Part shown: in pieces, positions 1,110 to 31,219 of the stretch
Position numbering within the stretch: position 1 is the stretch's first letter
How the letters are laid out: the number at the start of each line of letters is the position of its first letter
Source of the DNA: a phage
Direction: 5' to 3' (one strand)
Assembly: GCA_019897865.1 (NCBI GenBank)
Contig: GCA_019897865.1_4532.1
DNA length: 64,000 bases
Position numbers and translations under genes: made by a program
Notes under the pieces: model-generated
The model's input: only the letters and a program-made list of their open reading frames with translations
Database searches by the model: none
Told to the model about the DNA's origin: nothing

Positions 1110-1475
1110 TTAGTCCATCCACCAGTAGCCATAAACTGCGTCTGCGTCGATGAGTTTGTGTTTGTTGTTCCGCATGTAGTCTAAGATAAGTAGACGTTTA
1201 TTGTATCTGGAGAGATTATGACCCTCTTTTCCGCCATAGTCAAAATATTTTGCAAGATCTTTACACTCAAACAAAATCAGTTCGGGAGTTTCTTCACACT
1301 GGTCTGTCTGGTACACTTGACGAATGATCATGTATACATCGTCGTCTTCCGCTAAATGCTCTACTGGTCCACATCCAGCAGGAACAAATTCATAGTCCCA
1401 TCTGATCAGATGTTTCTCTACTGCTTCAAAGAAGTCCATTCTTTCGTTGCGCATAATTTGAACGTCAACTAACAT
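1110..1475 (-). CDS. hypothetical protein
   Basis: 121-aa ORF, GGAGG-containing RBS upstream (rc of ctcctctctc at 1481-1490). Confidence 0.5.
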   Translation of the reverse strand: MLVDVQIMRNERMDFFEAVEKHLIRWDYEFVPAGCGPVEHLAEDDDVYMIIRQVYQTDQCEETPELILFECKDLAKYFDYGGKEGHNLSRYNKRLLILDYMRNNKHKLIDADAVYGYWWMD

Positions 1476-2929
1476 GTTTCCTCCTCTCTCATTATTCCAC
1501 CTGCTTGGTTGATAGCACTTAAGACGATAGCCAAATCCTCGCGCAGGAAGGTTTCACTATGACCATCTTTCATGTGCAAGCGTTCTACACAGCCAATAGA
1601 CGGTAGAATCTGATCAGTCTTAGACTTTAGCTTACTCTCTAACGCCCTGCAAGCTTGGTAGGACGGCAGATCGAACAATGCTATACGGCGCATAGAGTAA
1701 TTGTTGTTTGCATTCTGCCCTTTGATCCTGATATCACTGTCCTTTGCAATCCCCAACTTGTAAGCTCCCGTGTCTTCTCCGTACTCATCAAGAATAATAT
1801 TGATGTAAAATTCTTGCATATTTCTGTTCTTACAGCCTGGACAACCTTTCCCATTGAGATAATCGGTAGGTGTGATCGTTTGCTCTCCATGCTCCCTACA
1901 TAGATATTTAAACTTGCTGTTATTGCTTACCTTATCAATGAATCCTATAAATTGATCCCCTCGTTCCTGGCAAGCTTTGGTCATACGGTAGGCCCATTGT
2001 TCAGGAGTGTAATGATAATATTTAGAACAACGGCAAGGAAGGCCACCCCTTTTCAAATGACTCATCTTCATCTCAAATTTATTATCGCATAAGCCTTCTT
2101 TACAATAATCATCCTCTGCACATATAGGACATTCTACAATCCAGTAAACCTGACGACCTAATCTATCTACTCTATCGCTACGATAATATTTACGCTCTAC
2201 ATTATCAGGACAAGCTTTTATAAAATCTTCAACATGTTGTTTATCCTCCATTGTATTCCTTTGTTTCGTCATTTCTCTTTGACAACTGTAGCATCCAGTC
2301 CCTTGTTTAGCACTGTTTACAGTGGTAGTGCACCATTGACCATGAACCTTACACTCACAAATCAACTTAGTGCGGGAACCGTTCCACGGTTCCACATAGC
2401 CTCTAACAATCCAGGGTTTTTCTTTATAAGCTTCTTCTACTTCTTCTTTATGTTTCTCCCATGCAATCGATGTTCTTTCTCTGTTTGCTTCTCCCATACA
2501 CTTCCTGCATCCACTCCCGTTTTTCGCAGAAGATATAGAAGTAGACCTCCACTCCCCATGTAAAGCACAACAACAAACCAGTTTAGTATTCCATCCTTTC
2601 CATTCTCCGTGCCATCCTGTAACAGTCCAAAACTTACCTGCCTGATTGTAAGTGGTTTGCACTTCTTCTTTATATTGCTCCCAGGTTTTTGATTTGTTTA
2701 TAGATACTGCTTTACTTATAATCTCCCTACCGCATTCTGGACAACCCCTCCCTAGTTTAGCGGTATTTATGCTTGTTGTTTTCCATTCTCCATGCAGAGC
2801 ACAGATGCATCTAAGTTTAGTTTTATTGCCGTTCCACGGCTCAATATAATCTACAACAGTCCAAGACTTACCTTGATAAGCTTGTTTTATATCTGTTTTA
2901 TATTGTTCCCAAGTGACTATTTTTGGCAC
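1469..2929 (-). CDS. Homing-endonuclease-like protein: three tandem ~66-aa Zn-ribbon repeats plus GIY-YIG/T5orf172-like C-terminal domain
   Basis: 486 aa; repeated W..YK...W.G..TKL.C.CALHGEW...S.AK.G.GC..C units; C-terminus FYINI...YKLGIAKD...R...E; GTG start with GGAGG RBS. Confidence 0.5.
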   Translation of the reverse strand: MPKIVTWEQYKTDIKQAYQGKSWTVVDYIEPWNGNKTKLRCICALHGEWKTTSINTAKLGRGCPECGREIISKAVSINKSKTWEQYKEEVQTTYNQAGKFWTVTGWHGEWKGWNTKLVCCCALHGEWRSTSISSAKNGSGCRKCMGEANRERTSIAWEKHKEEVEEAYKEKPWIVRGYVEPWNGSRTKLICECKVHGQWCTTTVNSAKQGTGCYSCQREMTKQRNTMEDKQHVEDFIKACPDNVERKYYRSDRVDRLGRQVYWIVECPICAEDDYCKEGLCDNKFEMKMSHLKRGGLPCRCSKYYHYTPEQWAYRMTKACQERGDQFIGFIDKVSNNSKFKYLCREHGEQTITPTDYLNGKGCPGCKNRNMQEFYINIILDEYGEDTGAYKLGIAKDSDIRIKGQNANNNYSMRRIALFDLPSYQACRALESKLKSKTDQILPSIGCVERLHMKDGHSETFLREDLAIVLSAINQAGGIMREEETC

Positions 2930-3017: not shown

Positions 3018-4157
3018 TTAGAACACGCTACCAAGTGTAGTGGAACGTTGTGTTACAGGCTCCAGCACCACTCGCAAAGTGTTTCCTGGTGTAGTGCTCA
3101 TAACCAGAATCTTACCACCTTCAATCAGATCACAAGTTAGACCATCAGCCGTTGCACATAGATCAATATGTGGATCACCATCTTCATCCAGGATAACATA
3201 ACTGTTGGTTTCCATTGCTTCCACTTCATCATCTTTCAAACTTTGTAGATAGATGTTCAGGGAACAAGCACCCGACAAAAACTTAGTAGGGGTGAAGTCG
3301 TGCCAGTTATTGATCCAATTCACCTTCAAGGTTTTGCCATTAGCTACGATAGAAGCCACATTCCATTTAGCATCGTTCCCTAAAGAAATACCCATCATTT
3401 CAAGACATTCTTTAAAAGTCATTTTTGGATAGAAATTCAATTCTTCTACAATGCCTTGAATAACATCGAAAGACAACTCTGTGCTAACATCCCATAAACG
3501 TTGGAAGTTATCTACGTGCTTTTTATTTACCAAGTTCTTATCCAAGTAATCTAACATAGTTTCACTAGACAGTTTATCGTAATTGAAACTGTAGTAGATA
3601 CGACTAGGACGGTTTACAAAATATTCCGAGATATAACCACTATTTTTAGTGAGGATGTAAAGTTTATTCCCACTTCCTGTTCCATCCAACAAGGTCAACA
3701 GTGCTTCCTGATCTTCTTTCTTAGCGTACACTTTATCAAATTCGTCAAATAAAACAACAGCACGATCTGTAATTTTACTCATAAATTCTAAGAAGCCAGC
3801 ATCTGTGTAAGGCTGTGTAACCAAAATGGTTGGAATACCTAAACCTTCTGTGGACATTAGAGACATGCTAATTAGTTTAGCTAACATCGTCTTACCACTG
3901 CCTTTTGTCCCTGTCAGTAACACCCCAGTATTTTTACCTTCTTTACTACGACGAGCAAATGTTTTAATAACATGTGCGGCGCGATCTTTAGTTTCCCCAT
4001 AAAGAGTGTTCGGAAGAGAGAAACTTTCACCACGCACTAAAGAGTAGTTACCGTGCGGATCGCAGTTGACAACCCAAACTCCAGCAGGAAGTTTATTAGC
4101 TTCAACGCCATATTCCTTATTTACAACAGCTACATCTCCAAAAATAGTGTATTTCAT
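3018..4157 (-). CDS. AAA-type ATPase
   Basis: 379 aa; Walker A GTKGSGKT and Walker B VVLFDEFDK. Confidence 0.65.
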   Translation of the reverse strand: MKYTIFGDVAVVNKEYGVEANKLPAGVWVVNCDPHGNYSLVRGESFSLPNTLYGETKDRAAHVIKTFARRSKEGKNTGVLLTGTKGSGKTMLAKLISMSLMSTEGLGIPTILVTQPYTDAGFLEFMSKITDRAVVLFDEFDKVYAKKEDQEALLTLLDGTGSGNKLYILTKNSGYISEYFVNRPSRIYYSFNYDKLSSETMLDYLDKNLVNKKHVDNFQRLWDVSTELSFDVIQGIVEELNFYPKMTFKECLEMMGISLGNDAKWNVASIVANGKTLKVNWINNWHDFTPTKFLSGACSLNIYLQSLKDDEVEAMETNSYVILDEDGDPHIDLCATADGLTCDLIEGGKILVMSTTPGNTLRVVLEPVTQRSTTLGSVF

Positions 4158-10554: not shown

Positions 10555-10923
10555 ATGAAGGTATTAAACTTTTACCATTTAGGCAAAACAATCCCAGAAG
10601 GTGCTGTTTATATTGGTAGAGCAATGCCACACATGGGACTAAAAGCCTCCAAGTTTGCAAACCCTTTTAAGTTAAAAGATGATGAACCACGAGGATCAAC
10701 TATACAAAGGTATAAAGAGTGGTTGTGGGAGCAAATTCGTTGTGGTAAGATCACTCTTGAAGATTTATTAGAGCTAGAAGGGAAAGATTTAGTTTGCTTC
10801 TGCTCCCCTCAACCTTGTCATGGAGATGTATTGATAGCAGCCGTGGCTTGGGCTAGAAAAGAGTGGGACAAAAGGCATTCTACTTATGTAGACAATTATT
10901 GGATTTGGGAGGAGAATTTTTGA
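10555..10923 (+). CDS. DUF4326-like protein
   Basis: 122 aa; VYIGRAMPHMGLKASKFANPF motif typical of DUF4326. Confidence 0.45.
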   Translation: MKVLNFYHLGKTIPEGAVYIGRAMPHMGLKASKFANPFKLKDDEPRGSTIQRYKEWLWEQIRCGKITLEDLLELEGKDLVCFCSPQPCHGDVLIAAVAWARKEWDKRHSTYVDNYWIWEENF

Positions 10924-13400: not shown

Positions 13401-13652
13401 ATGGCGGGGTATCACATAACAGACATTAAGAAACAACCTTATGGCAGCATAGAAAAGATTAAAGAGGAAGTAGAAGAACTTTTTGATGCTGTTGAACAGG
13501 ATTGCAAAATAATGCAACTTGTTGAATTATCAGATATTATAGGTGCTGTGGAGGGAGTTTTAGAACAACAGTTTCCAGATATGACTTTACAAGATTTAAT
13601 CATTATGTCCAGCATTACTAAACGCGCTTTCCGCACAGGAGGAAGATCATGA
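13401..13652 (+). CDS. small helical protein, possibly MazG-like
   Basis: 83 aa; EEVEELFDAVE and ELSDIIGAVE acidic helix motifs. Confidence 0.3.
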   Translation: MAGYHITDIKKQPYGSIEKIKEEVEELFDAVEQDCKIMQLVELSDIIGAVEGVLEQQFPDMTLQDLIIMSSITKRAFRTGGRS

Positions 13653-14203
13653 ACGTAGCTGTTATTGCTCAAGCTATTGATTACTACGGGCGATTTGCGG
13701 AGATGTTGGAAGTCCCTTATCTTGTAGATGCGGATATCCTTGCATATACATTACCAGAAGGTAAAGAGGATCGCCCCTTGGGGCATCCTAATGGTAAGTT
13801 CTACGTAGCCAGTGCAGAGCAGTCTTTCCTCCAGATGGAGAAAGACGGGTTTGAATTTTCAACAGATCATCCTTATATGGCTCTAACACCTTGCTACCGA
13901 ACAGAAGAAGAGTTAGATGATGTTCATTTTAACATTTTCTTGAAGTTGGAAATTATTGAGTTTTATCCAGGAGCATCCATCAAAGAATATGCCGAAACTA
14001 TGCGCTATTTCTTTTGGACGTATTACAAAGTTCAAACTCAAATCATAGAGACAGATATTGGTCTTGACGTGGAAGATATGTATGGGTTAGAATTAGGTTC
14101 GTTTGGGATGAGAACTTCTCCACAAGGTCATCCGTATTTATACGCCACTGGTATCGCAGAGCCTAGGGCATCTATTGCAATAAAACGAGGAGGGTTATTA
14201 TGA
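13649..14203 (+). CDS. hypothetical protein
   Basis: 184-aa ORF overlapping neighbours. Confidence 0.5.
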   Translation: MNVAVIAQAIDYYGRFAEMLEVPYLVDADILAYTLPEGKEDRPLGHPNGKFYVASAEQSFLQMEKDGFEFSTDHPYMALTPCYRTEEELDDVHFNIFLKLEIIEFYPGASIKEYAETMRYFFWTYYKVQTQIIETDIGLDVEDMYGLELGSFGMRTSPQGHPYLYATGIAEPRASIAIKRGGLL

Positions 14204-15549
14204 ATGTATATACACATAAGCAAGATTTGGTAACAGCGGCAAACAATCGGGGCTTGTTCGATAGGCTTTGCAAAGCTATTGAAATTGCATATGGTTGGAC
14301 TAAAGAGACAGATCCTAAACTTACAGGACAATATGCTCTTTTACACGGTTGCACAAATTTTCCATACGTCTGTCACACAGTCGGGACCAATGAATTTTCT
14401 GGAGAGCCGACAGTAGGAGATAATGAGCTACGTTTTACAGGAGATGCAATGCTAGATTTAATTCTTAAGAAAACTAAAATGTTAAAAATTGAAGATGTTT
14501 ACACAGACACTAGTAACCTTTCTGAAGAAGAAATTGGAGAAATGATTACTACTTTCAATAATACAACAGGGAAGAGTTTTTGGACTAAAAGCGATGCTTC
14601 CCGTCTTAAACGAGTAGACCCTGCTATTCCAGAAGACGGTAAGAAGTATCGAAAAGTTATCTTTTACGATAAAATGGCAGGTCTGGATGCGCTGCATCTT
14701 GAGTGTGGAAGCCTTGTGCCTCCGGCTGTCAGAGAACATGAATTTGCAGTTGAGGTTGAAGCACAGGAGTTTAAAGATATGTTTTATACTAAGCATGTAA
14801 GGAAAGTGGAAGATATGGAACAACAAAAAGAGACTTTTGAACCAGAAGACACAGAGCCTACCTATATTCCTAATACAGGTATTCAACCTTGTGAAGACTT
14901 TGTTCAAGTCCGTTACAAAAATGGTGTTTTAGAAGTATGCAAAGCCAACCACTTTGAATGGGAGAAATACGATAGTGAATGGCAGATTGAAGAATATTTT
15001 GTTCTCCCAAGAACAGCAAAATACCAAGCCCACATTGGAGGTAAACGCCCTTGTGATGGTCCTGTTGATGTTCTTTTTCGAAATGGGGACCAAGGAAAAG
15101 GTTTGTCGGCAGAGACGCTTTATTGGAGCCACTCTGGAGATGGATCAGACATTGTAGGTTATATTAAACTTAACCCGTCTCCACGTTACCGCAAGCGTCG
15201 TCAGAAGCCGCCAGTAGGTAAGAAGAGTGTCGTTCGTGTCCTCTACACTACACAACAGACCTACACATTTAAAAATGTGGTAGACGTGCAAGTGACTGAG
15301 GAGCGAGTTTATATCCAATATGATCGTGAAGTTACAGAGGGTATCAAAGAATCGGTTACTACCGAAATTGAAAATAAGCTTGTTATGGCGATCATTGTGG
15401 AAGAAAGTAAAGTAGAGAACGGTAAAGCCTACACTGTTCGTGATAGCTTCTTGCGTAATATCGATGGAACTTGGGATTATAATGGACATGATGGGACCGC
15501 TGTAAAGAACGGTAAGATTATGGGAAGACAATTCCTCTCCAAACAATAA
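14200..15549 (+). CDS. hypothetical protein
   Basis: 449-aa ORF, followed by terminator. Confidence 0.55.
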   Translation: MNVYTHKQDLVTAANNRGLFDRLCKAIEIAYGWTKETDPKLTGQYALLHGCTNFPYVCHTVGTNEFSGEPTVGDNELRFTGDAMLDLILKKTKMLKIEDVYTDTSNLSEEEIGEMITTFNNTTGKSFWTKSDASRLKRVDPAIPEDGKKYRKVIFYDKMAGLDALHLECGSLVPPAVREHEFAVEVEAQEFKDMFYTKHVRKVEDMEQQKETFEPEDTEPTYIPNTGIQPCEDFVQVRYKNGVLEVCKANHFEWEKYDSEWQIEEYFVLPRTAKYQAHIGGKRPCDGPVDVLFRNGDQGKGLSAETLYWSHSGDGSDIVGYIKLNPSPRYRKRRQKPPVGKKSVVRVLYTTQQTYTFKNVVDVQVTEERVYIQYDREVTEGIKESVTTEIENKLVMAIIVEESKVENGKAYTVRDSFLRNIDGTWDYNGHDGTAVKNGKIMGRQFLSKQ

Positions 15550-18758: not shown

Positions 18759-19415
18759 ATGACAATAAAACATATCTCTTTTGATGTATGGAACACTCTT
18801 ATTTCTGCCAATCAAAACTATGCAGATGCACGTACGCACACTATTGCGACATATGGTAGAATGTCTGAACGTGCCGCAAAAGAAGCATATAAAGATGCCA
18901 AAGAAATTATGGATAATGCTGCACTAAATGGGTGTGCAGAAGGTGTAGCATATGCATGGAATATGTTGGGAAGAAAAATAGGTTTAACCCCTGTAGAATC
19001 TGCACAAATGCGTTTTGAGTGTGAACAATGGTTTCTTAAATTTCCTCCACATATTGCTTTAGATTTGCCAGTTTGTTTGCTATACTTGTCTGGTAAATAT
19101 GATCTTAGTATTAAAAGCAATACTAATTTTATATCTGGGGATATTTTGCGTCGTGCTTGTATGTTCGATAGTTGGAATTGTTTTGAATTTATGCATTTTT
19201 CAGACGAACATCTGTTGTGTAAACCAGATCCTAGATTCTTTGTTAGGACCGCCACATATTCAAGCATTCCTTTGAAGGCTGAAGAGATTTTACATGTTGG
19301 GGACAGCGAAGAATTTGATGGTAAATGTGTTGACATAGGGATTAACTTCTGTCATATTAAGAACCCTAACGACTTACTAGAGAAACTTAAAAGAGGAGAA
19401 ATTGTAAATGCGTAA
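18759..19415 (+). CDS. HAD-superfamily hydrolase
   Basis: Motif I ISFDVWNTL, motif III CKPDPRFF, motif IV HVGDSEEFD. Confidence 0.6.
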   Translation: MTIKHISFDVWNTLISANQNYADARTHTIATYGRMSERAAKEAYKDAKEIMDNAALNGCAEGVAYAWNMLGRKIGLTPVESAQMRFECEQWFLKFPPHIALDLPVCLLYLSGKYDLSIKSNTNFISGDILRRACMFDSWNCFEFMHFSDEHLLCKPDPRFFVRTATYSSIPLKAEEILHVGDSEEFDGKCVDIGINFCHIKNPNDLLEKLKRGEIVNA

Positions 19416-20235
19416 TCAAATTCAAATTTTTGCAAATAAATTTGATGACCTGGAAACTGCTACTTTTGATATTAAAGATTATTCAAAATTGAAATTTGGT
19501 AGTAACCAGGCTGCGCGTCGTATGGGTAAAGAATTGGCACTTCAGTTTTTTGCTCAAGTGGCAATGAAACATATTGGGGAACAATTTGTTATCATCCCTT
19601 CTCCTTATAACCATGTGCATAATGCTGCAACAATGATGACAGATCATTTTATTAATTACTTTAATATGTTGCAAGCACAATATGATCAAGGTCGTTCAGC
19701 AGAACTGGATATTATTCATCGTAAAGTTAGCTATATCAACGATTATGGTTTCTTGGATAAAGCTAGTCGTAAGAAACTTATTGATGGGGATACATTCTAC
19801 TGCAACAAAGAATTCTGGGGTGATAAGAAGCTTGTGTTCATTGATGATGTAAATATCACCGGAACTCATGAAGACAAACTGATTGAGATCCTTGATGAAA
19901 ATCAAGTTAAAAATGATGTTTACTTCTTGTATTTTGCAAAATATGAAGGTAATCAAGCAGATACCGAAGCTAAACTGAATTTTAATTATATTAATACACC
20001 AGAAGCGTTTGTTAAAATGATTAATGAAGAACGTGATGCACAGTGCCTTGTTCGTCCTATTAAGTATCTTATGGGCCAAAATCACGAAGACTTCAAAATC
20101 ATTCTTAGCCAATTGCCACACTACTATGTAGAGCAACTTTTCTTTGGATGTTTGGGAGAAGGTTACAACCGAATTTCAAAGTATGCTGAAAACTTTGAAT
20201 TCTTGGATCGTTACACAAAACAACATGTTCTGTAA
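19408..20235 (+). CDS. type I phosphoribosyltransferase (PRTase)-like protein
   Basis: 275 aa; PRPP-binding-like motif KLVFIDDVNITGTH. Confidence 0.6.
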   Translation: MRNQIQIFANKFDDLETATFDIKDYSKLKFGSNQAARRMGKELALQFFAQVAMKHIGEQFVIIPSPYNHVHNAATMMTDHFINYFNMLQAQYDQGRSAELDIIHRKVSYINDYGFLDKASRKKLIDGDTFYCNKEFWGDKKLVFIDDVNITGTHEDKLIEILDENQVKNDVYFLYFAKYEGNQADTEAKLNFNYINTPEAFVKMINEERDAQCLVRPIKYLMGQNHEDFKIILSQLPHYYVEQLFFGCLGEGYNRISKYAENFEFLDRYTKQHVL

Positions 20236-20248
20236 TAAGGAGCTAAAA

Positions 20249-20722
20249 ATGCTTAAAATGAAAACAGGTAATCTTATTGATGCCGCTAAAGCAGGCGAAG
20301 TAACTGTTATTGCTCATTGTTGCAATTGTATGTGTAATATGGGAGCAGGAATTGCTCCGCAAATTAAACGAGCATTCCCTTATGCATATGCGGCAGATTT
20401 AGACACAATGGCTGGTGATCAAAGTAAGTTAGGTTCTTTTAGTTTAGGGGTGCCAGACGAACAATCGGACCCTTTGGTATATAATCTATACGGACAATAC
20501 CGTTACGGATACAATGCTAAAGGTCGTCAGTTGGACTATGATGCACTTTACGATGCACTAATAGCTATGGCTAATGATTTGCTTCTCCGTGACCAAAAAT
20601 GTAAGATCGGCTTACCTATGATTGGCGCTGGATATGCTGGAGGTAATTGGGCTATCATCCAAGTGATGATTGAAGAAACTTTAGTAAAAACAGGTCACGA
20701 TGTGACTATTTATAAACTTTAA
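20249..20722 (+). CDS. macro-domain protein (ADP-ribose binding/hydrolysing)
   Basis: Track ORF 20144..20722; ATG at 20249 preceded by AAGGAG; VTVIAHCCNCMCNMGAGIAPQI macro signature. Confidence 0.6.
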   Translation: MLKMKTGNLIDAAKAGEVTVIAHCCNCMCNMGAGIAPQIKRAFPYAYAADLDTMAGDQSKLGSFSLGVPDEQSDPLVYNLYGQYRYGYNAKGRQLDYDALYDALIAMANDLLLRDQKCKIGLPMIGAGYAGGNWAIIQVMIEETLVKTGHDVTIYKL

Positions 20723-20734
20723 GAGGAGATTAGT

Positions 20735-20956
20735 ATGGGTGTTTTTGCAGGTATTGTTGCAGTGGTAAGCTTTTTTGTTATTGCTTTTATGCTTAGTTTG
20801 ATTCCAGCTTGGTTACTGTTGCTGGCTTACAACTATGTTGCTGAAGTTATGGGTCATGCAGATATCACTGTCCCAGTAACCTTCTGGACCGTGGTTTGTG
20901 TTTCGTTTATTCTGGCGGTATTACGAGGAATCTTTTCCTCTCATTCAACAAAATAA
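20735..20956 (+). CDS. small integral membrane protein
   Basis: 73 aa, two hydrophobic helices, AGAGGAG RBS. Confidence 0.5.
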   Translation: MGVFAGIVAVVSFFVIAFMLSLIPAWLLLLAYNYVAEVMGHADITVPVTFWTVVCVSFILAVLRGIFSSHSTK

Positions 20957-21035: not shown

Positions 21036-22010
21036 ATGCAACTCGGTTTCCCAATTATTGATGTAGTTGTTTTAGTTGGTATTTTGGCATTGTCTATTGG
21101 TATCGATTTCTTTGGTCATAAAGAGAATAAAGAAATTGGAATTAAATCTGCTTTGCTTTGGTCTGTTTTTTGGATTGCTTTAGCTTTAGGATATTACGCA
21201 TTCATTTGGGTAGAGCATGGTAAAGAGTTTGCCGCACTTTTCCTAAGTGGATATGTGTTGGAAAAGAGTCTTTCTGTTGATAACCTAATGGTGTTCATGG
21301 CAATTTTTGCAAGCTTTGGAATTAAGAGCACACATCTCCAACATAAGATTTTACTTTGGGGGATTGCAGGAGCCATTGTCTTCCGAGGTATTTTTGTTGC
21401 AGCAGGGACCGCTTTGTTTAACCTTCATTGGTCGGTCCAAGTGTTGTTCGGTTTGATTGTAGCTTGGTCTGCCGTGGCTATCATCAAAGGTGGTGACGAA
21501 GAAGAGGATATTGATTACTCTAAGCATTGGGCTGTTCGTTTAGTAGGTAAAGTTCTGCCTGTGCACAATGCACTGGATGGTGAAAAGTTCATCACCATTA
21601 AGAATGGTATTAAATATGCAACTCCTGCTCTTCTTTGTGTGTTTGTTATTGAGCTTACAGATATTGTCTTCTCTTTTGATTCAGTTCCGGCTGTGATCGG
21701 TGTGACACAAGAACCTCTGCTAGTTTATTCTGCAATGCTGATGGCTGTTCTTGGTTTACGTGCACTTTTCTTTGTGTTAAGTGTAGCTGTGAAATATCTG
21801 GTTCACTTAGAGAAAGCTGTTGCTGTGGTTCTGGTGTTTGTTGGTGCTAAACTTATGTATCACCCGTTCGGTGAAACACTTCATGCCAAGTGGTCATTCC
21901 TCCCGCATGATATTTCCCCTAACGTAAGTCTGATGATTGTTCTAGGCACATTAGCTCTTGGTGTTATTGCAAGCTTTATCTTCCCTGAAAAAGAAGAAGC
22001 TGCTGTTTAA
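21036..22010 (+). CDS. TerC-family integral membrane protein
   Basis: 324 aa, multi-pass hydrophobic; TerC-type motifs including LEKSLSVDNL. Confidence 0.7.
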   Translation: MQLGFPIIDVVVLVGILALSIGIDFFGHKENKEIGIKSALLWSVFWIALALGYYAFIWVEHGKEFAALFLSGYVLEKSLSVDNLMVFMAIFASFGIKSTHLQHKILLWGIAGAIVFRGIFVAAGTALFNLHWSVQVLFGLIVAWSAVAIIKGGDEEEDIDYSKHWAVRLVGKVLPVHNALDGEKFITIKNGIKYATPALLCVFVIELTDIVFSFDSVPAVIGVTQEPLLVYSAMLMAVLGLRALFFVLSVAVKYLVHLEKAVAVVLVFVGAKLMYHPFGETLHAKWSFLPHDISPNVSLMIVLGTLALGVIASFIFPEKEEAAV

Positions 22011-23635: not shown

Positions 23636-24226
23636 ATGTATACCGAGAGAGACTTGCAACTCTTGTGGTGGGAAGTGATGCAGGAAATAAAAGAAGATTT
23701 TCCTGTTTACTACAACATGTTACGTGAAGCAGGATATAAAGCTTGCGTTAGAAACAAAGTGAATAACTCTTTCGGTTGGTGCAACTACCGAGATAAAATT
23801 GTTGTTGTAAATTGGCACTTGCATAAGAACTCTACAAGAGATATGATCGTGGATACAATGAAGCACGAAATTGCTCATGCTATTGATGGTTGTATGGGTA
23901 AGTTTAGTCGGCACGGTGCTCATTGGCAAAAACTGGCAGCAGAATTAGGGGCAAACCCTAAAGCTACTTCCAAAGAGCCGTTGAACCATGAATATAAATA
24001 TGTTCTTGTTTTGGTGGATAGGTTTGCGACAAGATGTGTTAGAGGGTATAATCGTAAACCTAATCGCATGTATCCAGGTAAGCAACCTAATATGTGGTTA
24101 AAATCAGATAAAGAAGGAACAGAAGGAAAATTATGGTTGTATAAATGGGACGATTGGGTTAAAGTAGCTAAAGAATACGGTGTTTCACCATATATAAGAG
24201 ATGCAGAAGAGGAGAATGAAGAATGA
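23636..24226 (+). CDS. SprT-like zinc metalloprotease-domain protein
   Basis: 196 aa; HExxH motif in MKHEIAHAIDG. Confidence 0.45.
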   Translation: MYTERDLQLLWWEVMQEIKEDFPVYYNMLREAGYKACVRNKVNNSFGWCNYRDKIVVVNWHLHKNSTRDMIVDTMKHEIAHAIDGCMGKFSRHGAHWQKLAAELGANPKATSKEPLNHEYKYVLVLVDRFATRCVRGYNRKPNRMYPGKQPNMWLKSDKEGTEGKLWLYKWDDWVKVAKEYGVSPYIRDAEEENEE

Positions 24227-25335
24227 CAAGTCCGTTTTTAAAAGCAGCTACTGGTGGTCAGAAGAAGTCTGAAATGAGTGTATTCACTGCAACAACAGAT
24301 GCAAGTAAATCTGTATTTGCTCCAACCGTGTTAGATGCCAGTCCTGTTTATGCACCAGCCGCACCGCAAGAAGTCCCAGTTTTGCCTTCTATGACACGAC
24401 AAGAGATCGAAGAGATCGGGGCAGAGGCAGGAACAACCTTGCGTTCCTTGAATGCCGAGGTATTAAAACATCAACGTAGTAATCAAGGCGATCAGATGAG
24501 TGAACGACTCACAGCTTTGATTAAACAGGCAAAACAACTTGATCCAAACTCTATTAAACAAAGCAAAGGTATTACTAAACTCATTAAAAAAGTTATGGGT
24601 ATGAAAGAAGACCTGTTTGGGGAGTTTGATAATGTTAATAACCGTATTGAAGAGTTGGTAAAGAACCTTCAAATGGATATTCGCAAAGAAGAAGATTCCT
24701 TGGTATATCTTGAAAAGCTACATCAAGCTATTGGACAATATGCTGCAAGTTTGAACCGAGATATGCAGCTTCTAACAGCAACCTATGAAAAAGAAGAACA
24801 AGCTTTGGCTGCTCTTCCAAAAGATGCGGTAGAACAGCGACAAGCGATCCGAGATACCTTGGATCTTCTGGAGATTCGTATTGCGGATTTAAAAGCATTG
24901 CGCCTACTGTGTGTCCAAATGGGACCACGTGTGCAAGGTATGCAAAAAGTTTCTGCAAGCTTAATGCGATCTGCGCGTAACATAGTAAATAATGTTATTC
25001 CTGCTTACTCTGCTAACTTCTCAATGTATATTGAGAGCTTACGTCAAATGAAAGCCGCAGAGACACAGAATAACGTTCTTGATGAATTTAACCTGGCAAT
25101 TAAACTGGGTAGCGATCTTGCCACACAGAATCAGATCGAAGCAGCAGCACTGGCTAACCGTCAAGTGTTGGATATTGAAACTCTGCGTCACGATCAGGAA
25201 AACTTGGTCAAAATGTTGGAAGAAACTAACCGCATCAATACGGAAGCCCGTGCTGCCCGTGTTGATTACATCAATGAAGTTCAATCTCTCGAAGATGGGA
25301 TGGTTGACGCTGTTAAGAAGGGGTTGGGTAAATGA
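24223..25335 (+). CDS. TelA-like (toxic anion resistance) helical protein
   Basis: 370 aa, Ala/Pro-rich N-terminus then long helical region; size and context fit TelA/KlaA family. Confidence 0.4.
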   Translation: MTSPFLKAATGGQKKSEMSVFTATTDASKSVFAPTVLDASPVYAPAAPQEVPVLPSMTRQEIEEIGAEAGTTLRSLNAEVLKHQRSNQGDQMSERLTALIKQAKQLDPNSIKQSKGITKLIKKVMGMKEDLFGEFDNVNNRIEELVKNLQMDIRKEEDSLVYLEKLHQAIGQYAASLNRDMQLLTATYEKEEQALAALPKDAVEQRQAIRDTLDLLEIRIADLKALRLLCVQMGPRVQGMQKVSASLMRSARNIVNNVIPAYSANFSMYIESLRQMKAAETQNNVLDEFNLAIKLGSDLATQNQIEAAALANRQVLDIETLRHDQENLVKMLEETNRINTEARAARVDYINEVQSLEDGMVDAVKKGLGK

Positions 25336-26733: not shown

Positions 26734-27528
26734 ATGTCCGAGAAAATCAGCCTGAAAAAACGTCAAGAAAACCTTGCTTTCTCTCTGAAAAAGAATAAGA
26801 ACCTGAACGAAGGTAAGATTGTTCTTCGTGTAGCATGTGCTCTAGATATTTCTGGTAGTATGCATGGTCTATATACTCGTGGGGTAGTGAGTGATTTTGT
26901 AGGTAAACTGCTTCCTTTTGGTATGCTGTTCGACGATAATGAACAAATTGACATGTGGGCCTTCAATACGAGTTCTCAAGAGCTTACTCCAGCAACAGCA
27001 GACGTTTACGATGACTACGTTGGTAAATGTATGCGTAATGTTCGTATCGGAGGTGGAACAAATTACGCCCCTGTAATGGCAGATATCTACGATGAGTATT
27101 TTGGCACTGTTACCAAATATGTTACCACTAAACAAGTGGTACAAGAGGAGGCTCCAAAGAAAGGCTTCTTTAATCGTCTGCTTGGTAAAACTGAAACAGT
27201 GTCTGTAGAGCGTGAAAAAGTTGTAGCTGTATCTGAACCAGGTGCTGACGTTACCCCTGGTGTTGTATTCTTCCAGACGGATGGTGAGAATGGTGATCCT
27301 AGTGCTGTTCGTCGTCTTATTGAAGAGAATAAGAATAAACCTATTTATTGGTTCATGGTTGGCGTTGGTAATGAGAAGTTTGGCTTCCTGAAAGAACTGG
27401 CAAATGCTTATGATAATGTTGGTTTTATTGGCATTAAAGATTTAGACTTGACAGATTCAGAGCTTTATGACAAACTCTTATCTGAAGAGTTCGGAGAGTG
27501 GGTTGTTAAAGTAGGTGCTAAAAAATGA
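26734..27528 (+). CDS. vWA-domain protein (TerF/TerY-like) with TerD-like N-terminal KISLKK motif
   Basis: 264 aa; MIDAS-like DISGSM; N-terminus MSEKISLKK mirrors TerD N-terminus. Confidence 0.55.
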   Translation: MSEKISLKKRQENLAFSLKKNKNLNEGKIVLRVACALDISGSMHGLYTRGVVSDFVGKLLPFGMLFDDNEQIDMWAFNTSSQELTPATADVYDDYVGKCMRNVRIGGGTNYAPVMADIYDEYFGTVTKYVTTKQVVQEEAPKKGFFNRLLGKTETVSVEREKVVAVSEPGADVTPGVVFFQTDGENGDPSAVRRLIEENKNKPIYWFMVGVGNEKFGFLKELANAYDNVGFIGIKDLDLTDSELYDKLLSEEFGEWVVKVGAKK

Positions 27529-28038: not shown

Positions 28039-28641
28039 ATGACTGATAAAATTTCCCTGAAAAAAGGCTCTAGCGAAAAAATTTCCCTGAAGAAAGTTGC
28101 TCCGGCTCTGAAAGAACTGCGCCTGGAATTCTCTTGGAAATCTGATTCTAAACTAGATCTGGATGTAAGTGCACTGGTTTGTCGTCATAATGCCGCTGGC
28201 AATCCTGAAATGCTGTCCGCACGTCATCTGGTTTGCTATGCTAATAAGTTTGATCCTGAACGTTCTACCTTCGCTGGTGACGATGTTCGTGATGGAACTG
28301 GCAGCATGGAGCAGATTGATATTACTCTGGCTAAAATCTCTCCTGATGCACAAGAGATTGCCTTTGTTCTGACTATTGATGATGATACAGGTCTGAAACG
28401 TTTTGGTCATGCTTCTGAAGGTATGCTTAAAATCTTCGACTCCGAGCGTAATGTGGAAATTCTGGATTTTGACTTCCTGGCTCCTGAAGTAGCTGGCAAC
28501 ACAATCTGCCACGTGGCTTCCCTGGTTCGTGAAGATGGAGAATGGAAGCTGAAAGCATATGGTGTAGGTAAAGCTGGTCTGGATATTTGCGATGTGGTGA
28601 TGGCCTTCGGTGGTAAAAAAGAATGGTATGAATGTCCATAA
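28039..28641 (+). CDS. terD: TerD-family protein
   Basis: 200 aa; ISLKKG...ISLKK, LDLDVSAL, GDDVRDGTG, GEWKLKAYGVGKAGL match the TerD fold signature. Confidence 0.8.
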   Translation: MTDKISLKKGSSEKISLKKVAPALKELRLEFSWKSDSKLDLDVSALVCRHNAAGNPEMLSARHLVCYANKFDPERSTFAGDDVRDGTGSMEQIDITLAKISPDAQEIAFVLTIDDDTGLKRFGHASEGMLKIFDSERNVEILDFDFLAPEVAGNTICHVASLVREDGEWKLKAYGVGKAGLDICDVVMAFGGKKEWYECP

Positions 28642-30535: not shown

Positions 30536-31219
30536 ATGGAAAATATTAAAATCGGAGTGGGTGTTATCACTGTAGGTGTCCGTCCACTTAAAGACTATCT
30601 TGTAACAGATCCACATGCAGATTTTCGAGTATTCAACGATCCAGATCGTAAAGGTGTAGCTTACGCCAGGAATGAACTTATGCACCAGTTTTATGAAGAA
30701 GGTTATGATTATTGGTTTATTTTTGACGACGATTGCTACCCAATCATGGAGGGATGGGAAACATATTTTGTAGATCAAGCTGTCTCTGGAGGATGGGATT
30801 TCTTTGGTATGCCGGAGTATTTCAAAGATAAAGTTGTTGGGAGTAAAGGAGAAGTTATTCTCTGGGAACTTGCAATGTGTCAATTTGCAATGTATTCTCG
30901 TGCCGTTGTTGAGAAGATGGGTTATTTCCGCCCTTACACTCACGGCTATGGTTTTGAAGATGCTGAATGGGTACACCGTTTGAAAGCTGCTGGTTTGAAT
31001 CAGGGTATTCAGGCAATACCTTGTCCACTTCGTATCATGGCTTATATCCACCCAGACGATGTTTTTGGAAACAATCCTATGCCTTTTGCTAATCTGACAA
31101 AAGAAGAGAAAGAAGCTGCTATTGGCATTAACTGGGAAGAATATAAAGCGTCTTTAGAAGATATTAAAAATGGGAAAATCCGAATTTCTTATGAGGAGGC
31201 ACTGGCACATGTCAAATAA
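30536..31219 (+). CDS. putative GT-A-fold glycosyltransferase
   Basis: 227 aa; FIFDDDCYP (DxD-like) and GYGFEDAEW motifs. Confidence 0.4.
   Translation: MENIKIGVGVITVGVRPLKDYLVTDPHADFRVFNDPDRKGVAYARNELMHQFYEEGYDYWFIFDDDCYPIMEGWETYFVDQAVSGGWDFFGMPEYFKDKVVGSKGEVILWELAMCQFAMYSRAVVEKMGYFRPYTHGYGFEDAEWVHRLKAAGLNQGIQAIPCPLRIMAYIHPDDVFGNNPMPFANLTKEEKEAAIGINWEEYKASLEDIKNGKIRISYEEALAHVK

Follow-up and report, generated by a model that had tools for sequence, protein, structure and literature searches.

The window analysed here is a 64,000-nucleotide stretch of phage DNA. In it, a gene for a stand-alone macrodomain protein (hereafter macro) lies in a tightly packed run of same-strand genes that also includes those for anaerobic ribonucleotide reductase; this run fits expression of macro together with nucleotide-metabolism genes. 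The positions of the flanking genes (Table 1) confirm the initial annotation in placing macro between PRTase_3 and TerC, and reveal a further gene that it had not listed, encoding a 73-residue membrane protein (tm73), between macro and TerC. Other Ter genes in the surroundings (TelA, vWA-TerF and TerD) are, like TerC, genuine, and a NADAR protein is encoded elsewhere in the same phage. The adjacent proteins of 201, 184 and 449 residues had no match in Pfam or NCBIfam, nor did the 201- and 449-residue proteins match any entry in the PDB.

A mechanical list of open reading frames extends the macro frame upstream to a TTG at position 20144, a stretch shared with the 3' end of the PRTase gene. We place the start at the downstream ATG instead, because a Shine-Dalgarno-like sequence precedes it. 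In RefSeq, ESCO5 and Schickermooser are annotated with the same start, which also agrees with the N-termini of 38 homologues. On the minus strand opposite the gene, no open reading frame of at least 60 codons was found.

Table 1. Genes, signals and conserved motifs at and around the macro locus, in window coordinates.
Feature	Position	Strand	Basis or remark
NADAR protein gene	378–920	−	
PRTase_3 gene	19408–20235	+	stop 13 nt before macro start
Shine-Dalgarno-like AAGGAG	20238–20243	+	5 nt 5' of macro ATG; read from sequence
macro gene, stand-alone macrodomain protein of Tk.4/AdfM type	20249–20722	+	157 aa plus stop; ATG and stop codon read from sequence
H23-C-C-N26 motif	20315–20326	+	H23 and N26 align with SCO6735 His24 and Asn27; invariant
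G32-A-G34 substrate-binding loop (macrodomain GxG motif)	20342–20350	+	alignments
N79-L-Y-G-Q83	20483–20497	+	Q83 at the SCO6735 Gln85 position; HMMER alignments to SCO6735 and TARG1
P123-M-I-G126-A-G128-Y-A-G-G132-N-W134 phosphate-binding loop	20615–20650	+	conservation and alignments
tm73 gene	20735–20956	+	starts 12 nt after macro stop
TerC gene	21036–22010		Pfam scan of window ORFs

Profile searches, matches to PDB entries and an AlphaFold2 model all bear out the earlier call of a macrodomain protein. The Pfam match (PF01661; residues 23–135 on profile positions 2–112 of 118) scores 23.3 bits with E = 6.5e-5, a narrow margin over the gathering cut-off of 22, and the match to phrog_335 has E = 7e-55. 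Against the PDB, phmmer returned SCO6735 (5e-13), BT1257 (8e-9), TARG1 (1.7e-6) and Thermus aquaticus DarG (2e-6), and the family profile returned BT1257 (8e-23), SCO6735 (3e-20), TARG1 (7e-18) and T. aquaticus DarG (1.5e-10). The AlphaFold2 model (mean pLDDT 93.5, pTM 0.90) has a three-layer α/β/α architecture in which the central sheet is mixed and the ADP-ribose cleft contains the GxG loop. The fold, on which the initial annotation had staked its call, is thus that of a macrodomain, and the assignment lies far above chance level.

The protein belongs to phrog_335, together with T4 Tk.4 and PhiKZ gp104; about 6% of sequenced phages carry a member of this family. Between alleles with dS of about 1, dN/dS was 0.08–0.12, which indicates purifying selection and therefore a functional gene. 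The sole NCBIfam and PADLOC matches were to the macro part of DarG. We rejected assignment as a DarG2 antitoxin, since the NCBIfam model (NF048014) gave 34.3 bits, far below its cut-off of 250, and was matched only at profile positions 2–147 of 338. The PADLOC match covers profile positions 1–144 of 329 and, unlike DarG2, the macro protein has neither a C-terminal DarT-binding domain nor an adjacent DarT.

The active-site comparison that had been proposed as a check found the catalytic residues of SCO6735 kept. In a set of 39 homologues with 46–91% identity, H23, N26, G32, G34, N79, Q83, P123, G126 and G128 are invariant, as are G132 and W134. G126 and G128 align with Gly126 and Gly128 of SCO6735, and Q83 aligns both with SCO6735 Gln85 and with K84 of TARG1, in the segment YLITK. 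The Gln85 position is equivalent to the catalytic Lys84 of TARG1 and Lys80 of DarG, and mutagenesis of SCO6735 indicates that Asn27 positions the catalytic Gln; the substitutions N27S, Q85A and G128E each abolished or strongly reduced hydrolysis of thymidine-ADPr (PMC9411070). Around the catalytic residue, an eight-sequence MAFFT alignment misplaced TARG1 and PhiKZ gp104, so their placement at this site was taken from the HMMER profile alignment and the published structural equivalence.

The mobile loop that follows Q83, where pLDDT falls to 81, aligns without a gap to SCO6735 and BT1257 and with a gap of five residues to TARG1; it exceeds the TARG1 and DarG loops by about five residues, as is typical of Gln-type enzymes. 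On these sequence features we assign the protein to the ALC1-like class, as a Gln type resembling SCO6735 and BT1257. Two lysines of SCO6735 that position the DNA backbone, Lys34 and Lys89 (PMC9411070), are not conserved, their places being taken by A33 and Gly87. These lysines are substrate contacts of one enzyme and do not define the class.

In the PDB, macro is closest in sequence and fold to SCO6735 from Streptomyces coelicolor (PDB 5E3B) and BT1257 from Bacteroides (2FG1/2AFC). Both share with macro the Gln in place of the catalytic Lys, the Asn, the His, the two phosphate-loop glycines and the long mobile loop, at about 27–28% identity. They differ in the substrate loop, which is GWGKGF in these two proteins and MGAGIA, as in TARG1, in macro. 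They also differ in origin, being chromosomal housekeeping or stress proteins, whereas macro is a phage gene. Human TARG1/OARD1 (C6orf130) is ALC1-like too, and the 'AHC...MGAGIA' and 'PRIGCGL' loops are common to both proteins. However, where TARG1 has the catalytic pair Lys84/Asp125, macro has Gln83/Ala130; TARG1 also has Ser at the family's Asn26 position and a shorter mobile loop.

Among phage proteins, T4 Tk.4 is likewise a stand-alone macrodomain, of about 155 residues, and is 37% identical to macro over 124 residues (E = 1e-21). The two share the motifs H-x-C-N, MG[AS]G, NLY-x-Q and P-x-IGAG, score similarly against the PADLOC DarG model (macro 38 bits, Tk.4 36 bits) and carry the same RefSeq label, 'phosphatase' (A1pp motif); the Schickermooser orthologue is annotated with the NCBI tk.4 domain (PHA02595). 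However, Tk.4 has five residues fewer in the loop that follows its catalytic Gln, and its gene is flanked by tk.3 and vs, whereas macro adjoins PRTase_3 and tm73. The similarity to PhiKZ gp104 is marginal (BLASTP E = 0.012, compared with 1e-25 for gp104 against DarG). Both gp104 and DarG carry a catalytic Lys (K78 and K80) where macro has Gln (PMC9411070, PMC13309987). We rejected direct orthology with gp104, a Lys-type macrodomain of the DarG clade, although the PHROG is common to both. The chimallivirus protein also comes from a nucleus-forming phage, and no phage nucleus is involved here.

The initial annotation had further suggested that macro processes an intermediate of a Ter-like pathway. 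Such a role could mean handling an ADP-ribosylated or phosphoribosylated intermediate, or switching off the nucleoside-like product of HAD and PRTase_3, in concert with TerC, TelA, the TerF-like vWA protein and TerD. The genuine Ter genes nearby and the same-strand packing, with gaps of 13 and 12 nt, are what such a module would look like, and the order HAD–PRTase_3–macro–tm73–TerC is shared by Phapecoctavirus, Justusliebigvirus and relatives (loci L001, L002, L008, L009, L011, L014 and L169). The adjacency of macro, PRTase_3, HAD and TerC is real and is limited to Stephanstirmvirinae and close relatives. Beyond them the genes part company. The macro family occurs in 2,938 phage records, compared with 157 for PRTase_3 and 175 for TerC, which makes it about 19-fold more common in phages than PRTase_3. 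The PRTase_3 loci were surveyed by tblastn against the phage collection, as a single-protein PRTase_3 query in IMG/VR gave just one close relative. About 70 of 80 viral macro loci have no Ter gene nearby, and none was found near any of 79 bacterial macro loci. The Xanthomonas, Rhizobium and Brevundimonas phages XaC1, RHph_TM21B and Kabachok, from three unrelated groups, have the HAD–PRTase_3 pair with no macro within 7 kb, whereas four related phages of 140–150 kb (L003, L006, L007 and L013) have macro without HAD–PRTase_3. Even where the order is kept, a further gene of 188 codons can separate PRTase from macro, as in L011 and L014 and also in KP13-26.

Allelic variation points the same way. 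In Schickermooser, nucleotide identity is 78% for macro but 96% for PRTase and 99% for TerC, so that macro alleles are exchanged as a cassette between well-conserved flanks. In SKA64 and ECO340P1, by contrast, macro is 96% identical and TerC just 73% at the protein level. Macro and TerC alleles thus assort independently among near-identical phages and, given this independent divergence, are not co-adapted. Upstream of TerC, the spacer contains a promoter-like site, and the gene is followed by a terminator-like hairpin; these hint that TerC may form its own transcription unit. This hint is weak because promoter-like sites were no more frequent than in shuffled sequence (30 observed vs. 31.6). 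The Ter components enumerated in the summary of Iyer et al. (2021; PMC7824862) are PRTases, HAD, TerB/TerD, TerC, TelA and the TerF vWA protein, with no macrodomain on that list, and the biosynthetic module described there after Anantharaman et al. (2012) consists of PRTase and HAD. In our data, the core of the Ter-like biosynthetic unit is likewise the HAD–PRTase_3 pair, travelling alone.

Because macro and HAD–PRTase_3/TerC occur and vary separately, the proposed role in the Ter pathway is not supported; we consider it highly improbable for this protein, and a general association was rejected, whether in viral contigs, in annotated phage genomes or in bacterial genomes. Models of the phage Ter-like pathway are better built without macro. 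A local version, in which the Stephanstirmvirinae macro was recruited as a Ter partner that hydrolyses or switches off an ADP-ribose-like nucleoside conjugate made by HAD–PRTase_3, would put the phage Ter system under the control of an ADP-ribose-type small molecule. The gene order on which it draws has held in at least three genera, but every comparative test that we ran points to mere adjacency, and we give this version only a slim chance.

Instead, the evidence favours the other proposal of the initial annotation, an independent anti-defence ADP-ribosyl hydrolase, which is backed by homology to Tk.4 and gp104 and by the catalytic residues shared with SCO6735. We propose, with a probability of about 65%, that macro is a DNA ADP-ribosylglycohydrolase that counters DarT2 and stands outside the Ter pathway. 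Both T4 Tk.4 and PhiKZ gp104 have been named AdfM, for anti-DarT factor macrodomain (bioRxiv 10.1101/2025.11.20.689424; PMC13309987). In T4, tk.4 was the single significant gene that is conditionally essential on DarTG2, and its clean knockout sensitised the phage (bioRxiv 10.1101/2025.11.20.689424). The gp104-type proteins of PhiKZ and PhiPA3 are required for growth on DarTG2 hosts, and PhiKZ gp104 strips DarT2 marks from DNA, an action seen in vitro (PMC13309987). SCO6735 cleaves thymidine-ADPr on single-stranded DNA and rescues cells from DarT, and all four ALC1-like enzymes tested, TARG1 included, reverse thymidine-ADPr (PMC9411070).

In this reading, the host DarT2 toxin ADP-ribosylates thymidines in single-stranded phage DNA and so blocks replication. 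By analogy with SCO6735, macro would bind the ADP-ribose in the cleft between the G32-x-G34 and G126-x-G128 loops, where Q83, held by N26, would position the distal ribose for hydrolysis of the N-glycosidic bond. Free ADP-ribose would be released and the template would become usable again. Macro would do this alone, apart from the neighbouring HAD–PRTase_3 and TerC genes. Several observations temper the proposal. Identity to Tk.4 is modest and the similarity to PhiKZ AdfM marginal, as described above, and the DNA-contacting lysines of SCO6735 are missing. The macro protein is also acidic (pI 5.6), whereas SCO6735, BT1257 and TARG1 are basic (8.7–9.7). Its acidity is not decisive because PhiKZ AdfM, a validated DNA enzyme, is equally acidic (5.05), and for that reason we dropped net charge as a discriminator between DNA and small-molecule substrates.

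The genomic company kept by the family bears on a different substrate. Over 80 viral loci, the commonest neighbours were Nampt (23), NADAR (20), an RNA-repair-type HAD (HAD_SAK_2; 19), YAcAr SLOG (9) and a NadM-like Nudix protein (7), and recurrent bacterial neighbours were NadE, NADAR, PncB, a PncA-like isochorismatase, ARH and NrtR. These are NAD+ salvage genes and not DNA-repair genes, a counterpoint to the anti-DarT2 reading. They raise the possibility that macro acts on soluble 1''-linked ADP-ribose derivatives, thereby disarming NAD+-based immunity, feeding NAD+ recycling, or both. Candidates include ADP-ribose-1''-phosphate, which RES/MbcT-type toxins or RNA repair generate as a toxic product, as well as O-acetyl-ADP-ribose, His-ADPR and glycocyclic ADPR immune signals. 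It has been argued from genomic context that phage macrodomains mostly target soluble derivatives, and ALC1-like macrodomains may be among those that do (Iyer et al., 2022); the acidity of the protein and the absent lysines would suit such a substrate. However, the phenotype of the genetically tested T4 and PhiKZ relatives is specific to DarTG2 and in vitro gp104 works on DNA, while SCO6735, the closest characterised structure, favours thymidine-ADPr DNA over protein (PMC9411070). Moreover, no NAD+ salvage gene adjoins macro in this phage. DNA and soluble activities are compatible with each other, and we regard a primarily soluble substrate as unlikely.

ALC1-like macrodomains also act on protein: SCO6735 and TARG1 both remove Glu/Asp-linked ADP-ribose (PMC9411070). 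Macro might therefore reverse ADP-ribosylation of protein or RNA, laid down either by host defence transferases (for example, CmdT-like mRNA ADP-ribosylation) or by an ADP-ribosyltransferase of the phage, in which case it would tune host takeover. The family profile matches TARG1 and SCO6735 nearly equally, the MGAGIA loop is TARG1-like, and RNA-ADP-ribosylating defences have been proposed as possible targets of further phage enzymes (Johannesman et al.). Yet the catalytic pair of TARG1 is replaced in macro, and SCO6735 cleared ADP-ribose thoroughly from DNA but not from protein (PMC9411070). The phenotype of the T4 knockout was specific to DarTG2 (bioRxiv 10.1101/2025.11.20.689424), and no ADP-ribosyltransferase was detected among the 47 window ORFs scanned against Pfam. 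A protein or RNA substrate is, in our judgement, very unlikely. Macrodomains also come up in a paper on Migulavirinae and Thoeris, which was set aside because it concerns the host ThsA protein and not a phage macrodomain.

If macro does counter DarT2, AdfM function would reach a third large group of myophages beyond T4 and the nucleus-forming phages, and phrog_335 as a whole would appear to be largely an anti-DNA-ADP-ribosylation family whose active site is built on Gln instead of Lys. Phapecoctavirus and its relatives would then carry a counter to DarTG2 along with a NADAR protein that may counter DarTG1. Phapecoctavirus-type phages are frequent therapy candidates against avian-pathogenic and multidrug-resistant E. 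coli, so carriage of anti-DarTG genes bears on the prediction of host range for strains with DarTG. As for the second of these genes, NADAR-type enzymes undo the guanine marks of DarT1 (PMC11825919).

Finally, the protein shows fold and profile similarity of the type seen with yeast Poa1p (PDB 6LFQ), an ADP-ribose-1''-phosphate phosphatase; the single-sequence match is weak (1e-3) and confined to the N-terminal half. Neither the window ORFs that were scanned nor the family's recurrent neighbours included a tRNA-splicing, KptA or 2H partner. In BIS47, an RNA ligase 2 gene lies about 0.5 kb from the family member.

The macrodomain gene is bounded as first annotated, with an ATG at 20249, 5 nt past AAGGAG, and a product of 157 aa (hereafter the window protein). 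A longer mechanical ORF from TTG 20144 was rejected, as it overlaps the PRTase gene and is contradicted by the annotated orthologues and by the N-termini of 38 homologues. The Pfam match (PF01661) barely exceeds its gathering score (23.3 vs. 22 bits). Searching PDB sequences with phmmer returned SCO6735 (5e-13), BT1257 (8e-9), TARG1 (1.7e-6) and T. aquaticus DarG (2e-6), and a 39-member family profile matched BT1257 (8e-23), SCO6735 (3e-20), TARG1 (7e-18), DarG (1.5e-10) and Poa1p (3e-10). The AlphaFold2 model has a mean pLDDT of 93.5, and Foldseek against viral models returned phage macro proteins, one of them a 'tk.4' protein. These independent results agree on the macro assignment; the modelled fold is macro, and the non-macro fold that the initial annotation had named as grounds for refutation was not seen. 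Between allelic forms in closely related phages, dS is ~1 and dN/dS 0.08-0.12; the gene is under strong purifying selection as an enzyme and is not decaying.

We consider it probable (roughly 0.65), judging from homology, that the window protein is a stand-alone anti-DarT2 DNA ADP-ribosylglycohydrolase, which would take DarT2-placed, thymidine-linked ADP-ribose off DNA through a Gln-based active site as in SCO6735. Fold, subclass, catalytic residues, selection and independence from Ter are established by the analysis, whereas the substrate and the phenotype are inferred. An independent anti-defence hydrolase was one of two roles initially proposed, and it is backed by similarity to T4 Tk.4 (37% identity over 124 residues, E = 1e-21) and by membership of phrog_335, the PHROG family that takes in Tk.4, PhiKZ gp104, an rV5-like BIS47 homologue and the window protein. 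Tk.4 and the window protein share the H-x-C-N, MG[AS]G, NLY-x-Q and P-x-IGAG motifs and score alike with the PADLOC DarG model (36 and 38 bits). The function of the macro family is already genetically supported in T4, where a clean tk.4 knockout is sensitive to DarTG2 and the gene has been called adfM (bioRxiv 10.1101/2025.11.20.689424). This finding answers why T4 without adfA and adfN stays DarTG2-resistant (PMC11825919). In independent work, the chimallivirus macro protein gp104 of PhiKZ takes DarT2 marks off DNA and is required on DarTG2 hosts (PMC13309987). Unlike the window protein, however, gp104 is a Lys-type macrodomain of the DarG clade, and their pairwise similarity is marginal; thus, the window protein is of the T4 rather than the PhiKZ type.

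By sequence, the closest solved relatives all belong to the ALC1-like class. Invariant in the family alignment are H23, N26, G34, D50, K60, N79, Q83, P123, G126, G128, G132 and W134, and HMMER aligns H23, N26, Q83, G126 and G128 with SCO6735 His24, Asn27, Gln85, Gly126 and Gly128. Gln85 sits where TARG1 and DarG have a catalytic Lys, and the ability of SCO6735 to hydrolyse thymidine-linked ADP-ribose on ssDNA is lost or much reduced in the mutants Q85A, N27S and G128E (Hlousek-Kasun et al., PMC9411070). SCO6735, DarG and TARG1 alike reverse DarT marks, and a longer 'mobile loop' distinguishes the SCO6735/BT1257 subclass (PMC9411070). The window protein shares with SCO6735 the Gln, the Asn, both Gly and the long loop, but neither of its two DNA-contacting lysines, having Ala33 in place of Lys34. 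The MGAGIA substrate loop is like that of TARG1; TARG1 Asp125 is replaced by Ala130. Identity with DarG itself was rejected, given 34 bits against a 250-bit cut-off and neither a C-terminal DarT-binding domain nor a DarT neighbour.

A role on soluble ADP-ribose derivatives (ADP-ribose-1''-phosphate, O-acetyl-ADP-ribose, His-ADPR or cyclic ADPR signals) is plausible though much less likely, and could coexist with action on DNA. It is favored by NAD+-salvage neighbourhoods across the family, an equal fold similarity to Poa1p, the acidity of the window protein and the case made by Iyer et al. (2022). Removal of ADP-ribose from protein or RNA, possible for the ALC1-like class, we regard as improbable. 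The other role initially proposed, a step in the putative Ter metabolite pathway, is very improbable: the family is far wider than PRTase_3 or TerC, the HAD-PRTase_3 pair occurs elsewhere without macro, and the alleles assort independently.

The Ter-like cluster around the macro gene is real, with TerC, TelA, a TerF-like vWA protein and TerD. The gene lies in a block of early-type genes, all on the plus strand (see table). The 5 kb around it share 99% nucleotide identity with OZ035743, vB_EcoM-Ro121lw, ESCO13, ESCO5 and phAPEC8 relatives, Phapecoctavirus E. coli myophages of 145-152 kb (subfamily Stephanstirmvirinae). Downstream of TerC, the genes for SprT-like, TelA, vWA and TerD proteins, with small genes of unknown function among them, complete the phage-borne Ter-like set.

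Genes of the macro block, in order, followed by other features of the window
Feature	Coordinates	Strand	Remark
UvrD-like helicase, then two unknown proteins		+	gene order 1
NrdD, NrdG, then 201-aa unknown protein		+	gene order 2
HAD hydrolase	18759-19415	+	
ComF-like PRTase_3	19408-20235	+	
Macrodomain protein	20249-20722	+	
73-aa membrane protein	20735-20956	+	
TerC/Alx	21036-22010	+	
SprT-like metalloprotease	23636-24226	+	downstream of TerC
TelA	24223-25335	+	downstream of TerC
TerF-like vWA	26734-27528	+	downstream of TerC
TerD	28039-28641	+	downstream of TerC
NADAR protein, 180 aa	378-920	-	
486-aa CapR-repeat protein	1469-2929	-	
AAA-type ATPase	3018-4157	-	
DUF4326 protein	10555-10923	+	
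184-aa protein	13649-14203	+	
449-aa protein	14200-15549	+	
Glycosyltransferase-like gene	30536-31219	+	

By tblastn, the macro family occurs in 2,938 of 50,697 phage records (T4-like, Felix O1-like, PaoP5-like, rV5-like, Vi1-like and jumbo phages), PRTase_3 in 157 and TerC in 175. Only ~10 of 80 viral contigs with a family member have a Ter-cluster gene within 8 kb of it, and the five with both PRTase_3 and TerC beside macro are all 150-kb relatives of this phage. Six more related contigs (L003, L006, L007, L010, L012 and L013) match other genes of the block; in L003, L006, L007 and L013, macro lies beside TerC, TelA or vWA but without HAD or PRTase. Recurrent neighbours in other viral loci are Nampt (23), NADAR (20), RNA-repair-type HAD (19), YAcAr SLOG (9) and NadM-like Nudix (7). 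None of 79 bacterial loci has a Ter gene near macro; NadE, NADAR, PncB, PncA-like isochorismatase, ADP-ribosylglycohydrolase and NrtR recur weakly there. In some Stephanstirmvirinae, such as Klebsiella phage KP13-26 and loci L011 and L014, a 188-aa gene separates PRTase from macro (L169 6847-7410; L011 4024-4590; L014). Its product has no Pfam match and by eye resembles all-alpha MazG-type NTP pyrophosphohydrolases.

HAD-PRTase_3 forms a mobile unit of two genes, also present in unrelated phages with no Ter genes nearby. It is kept in the Xanthomonas jumbo phage XaC1, in Rhizobium phages and in jumbo phages of Brevundimonas, where neither macro (hmmsearch, E up to 1) nor Ter genes were found within 7 kb. 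The two genes abut in the window (18759-20235, +) and in three compared loci (L163 6333-7816, L164 4308-5613, L165 6330-7843). In Kabachok, TerC is ~40 kb from the pair, and Rhizobium phage TM21B has an NMN adenylyltransferase/Nudix gene ~250 bp downstream of the pair. The pair may merit separate study.

The macro-TerC region is a patchwork of swapped alleles. In Schickermooser, macro has 78% nucleotide identity against 96-99% for HAD, PRTase, the 73-aa gene and TerC; in 3A1_SA_NWU, macro (81%) and the 73-aa gene (79%) lie between flanks of 97-99%. A more distant contig, L002, has macro at 91% aa vs. 66-86% aa for HAD, PRTase, TerC and NrdD, and SKA64 and ECO340P1 have macro at 96% but TerC at 73%. 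TerC/Alx is dimorphic in otherwise near-identical Phapecoctavirus genomes (99-100% vs. ~73% protein identity), and the macro dimorphism affects a different set of genomes. From the patterns in these phages, macro and Ter alleles assort independently. A TTGACA-16-TAAGAT site in the 79-nt spacer upstream of TerC and a strong hairpin-plus-T-run downstream of it are only a hint, since shuffled sequence yields promoter-like sites at least as often. Taken together, six tests (distribution, both neighbourhoods, insertions, mosaicism and transcription signals) establish a lineage-specific adjacency, with macro behaving as a separate cassette.

Macrodomains occur in 41% of myoviruses (Iyer et al., 2022), and GenBank records of this phage group label the gene 'phosphatase' or 'macro domain-containing protein'. 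The novelty is modest: the Stephanstirmvirinae gene is placed in the Tk.4/AdfM type and the Gln-type ALC1-like subclass, and its location within the Ter-like cluster is shown to be incidental.

The NADAR protein (PF08719, E = 3e-35; phrog_1017; PADLOC PDC-M42C) and the DUF4326 protein (PF14216, E = 1e-21; RefSeq 'ribonucleotide reductase NrdA-like') both fall within the NAD+/ADP-ribose network. Phage NADARs (AdfN) undo the ADP-ribosylation of guanine by DarT1 (PMC11825919), and this phage may carry NADAR and macro erasers ~20 kb apart on opposite strands. Public records name the 184-aa protein 'histidyl tRNA synthetase' and the 449-aa protein 'ribonucleotide reductase', which looks unfounded: Pfam and NCBIfam gave no match for either, nor PDB sequences for the latter. 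The 449-aa protein is unusually divergent among close relatives (58% in ESCO5). Five CapR-homology repeats (PF21817, E = 1e-28) are present in the 486-aa protein, whose gene adjoins that of the AAA-type ATPase. At 96-99% identity to these E. coli phages, records named as Campylobacter, Acinetobacter, Pseudomonas and 'Dompiswa' phages seem to be contaminated or to carry a wrong host label, and JAEZZU010000159 (L082), binned in a 'Proteobacteria bacterium' MAG, is a Phapecoctavirus fragment. Finally, in a run of three glycosyltransferase-like genes, the one listed matches the TET-associated glycosyltransferase family (PF20691, E = 1.3e-3) only weakly and below threshold, a possible sign of DNA or glycan modification.
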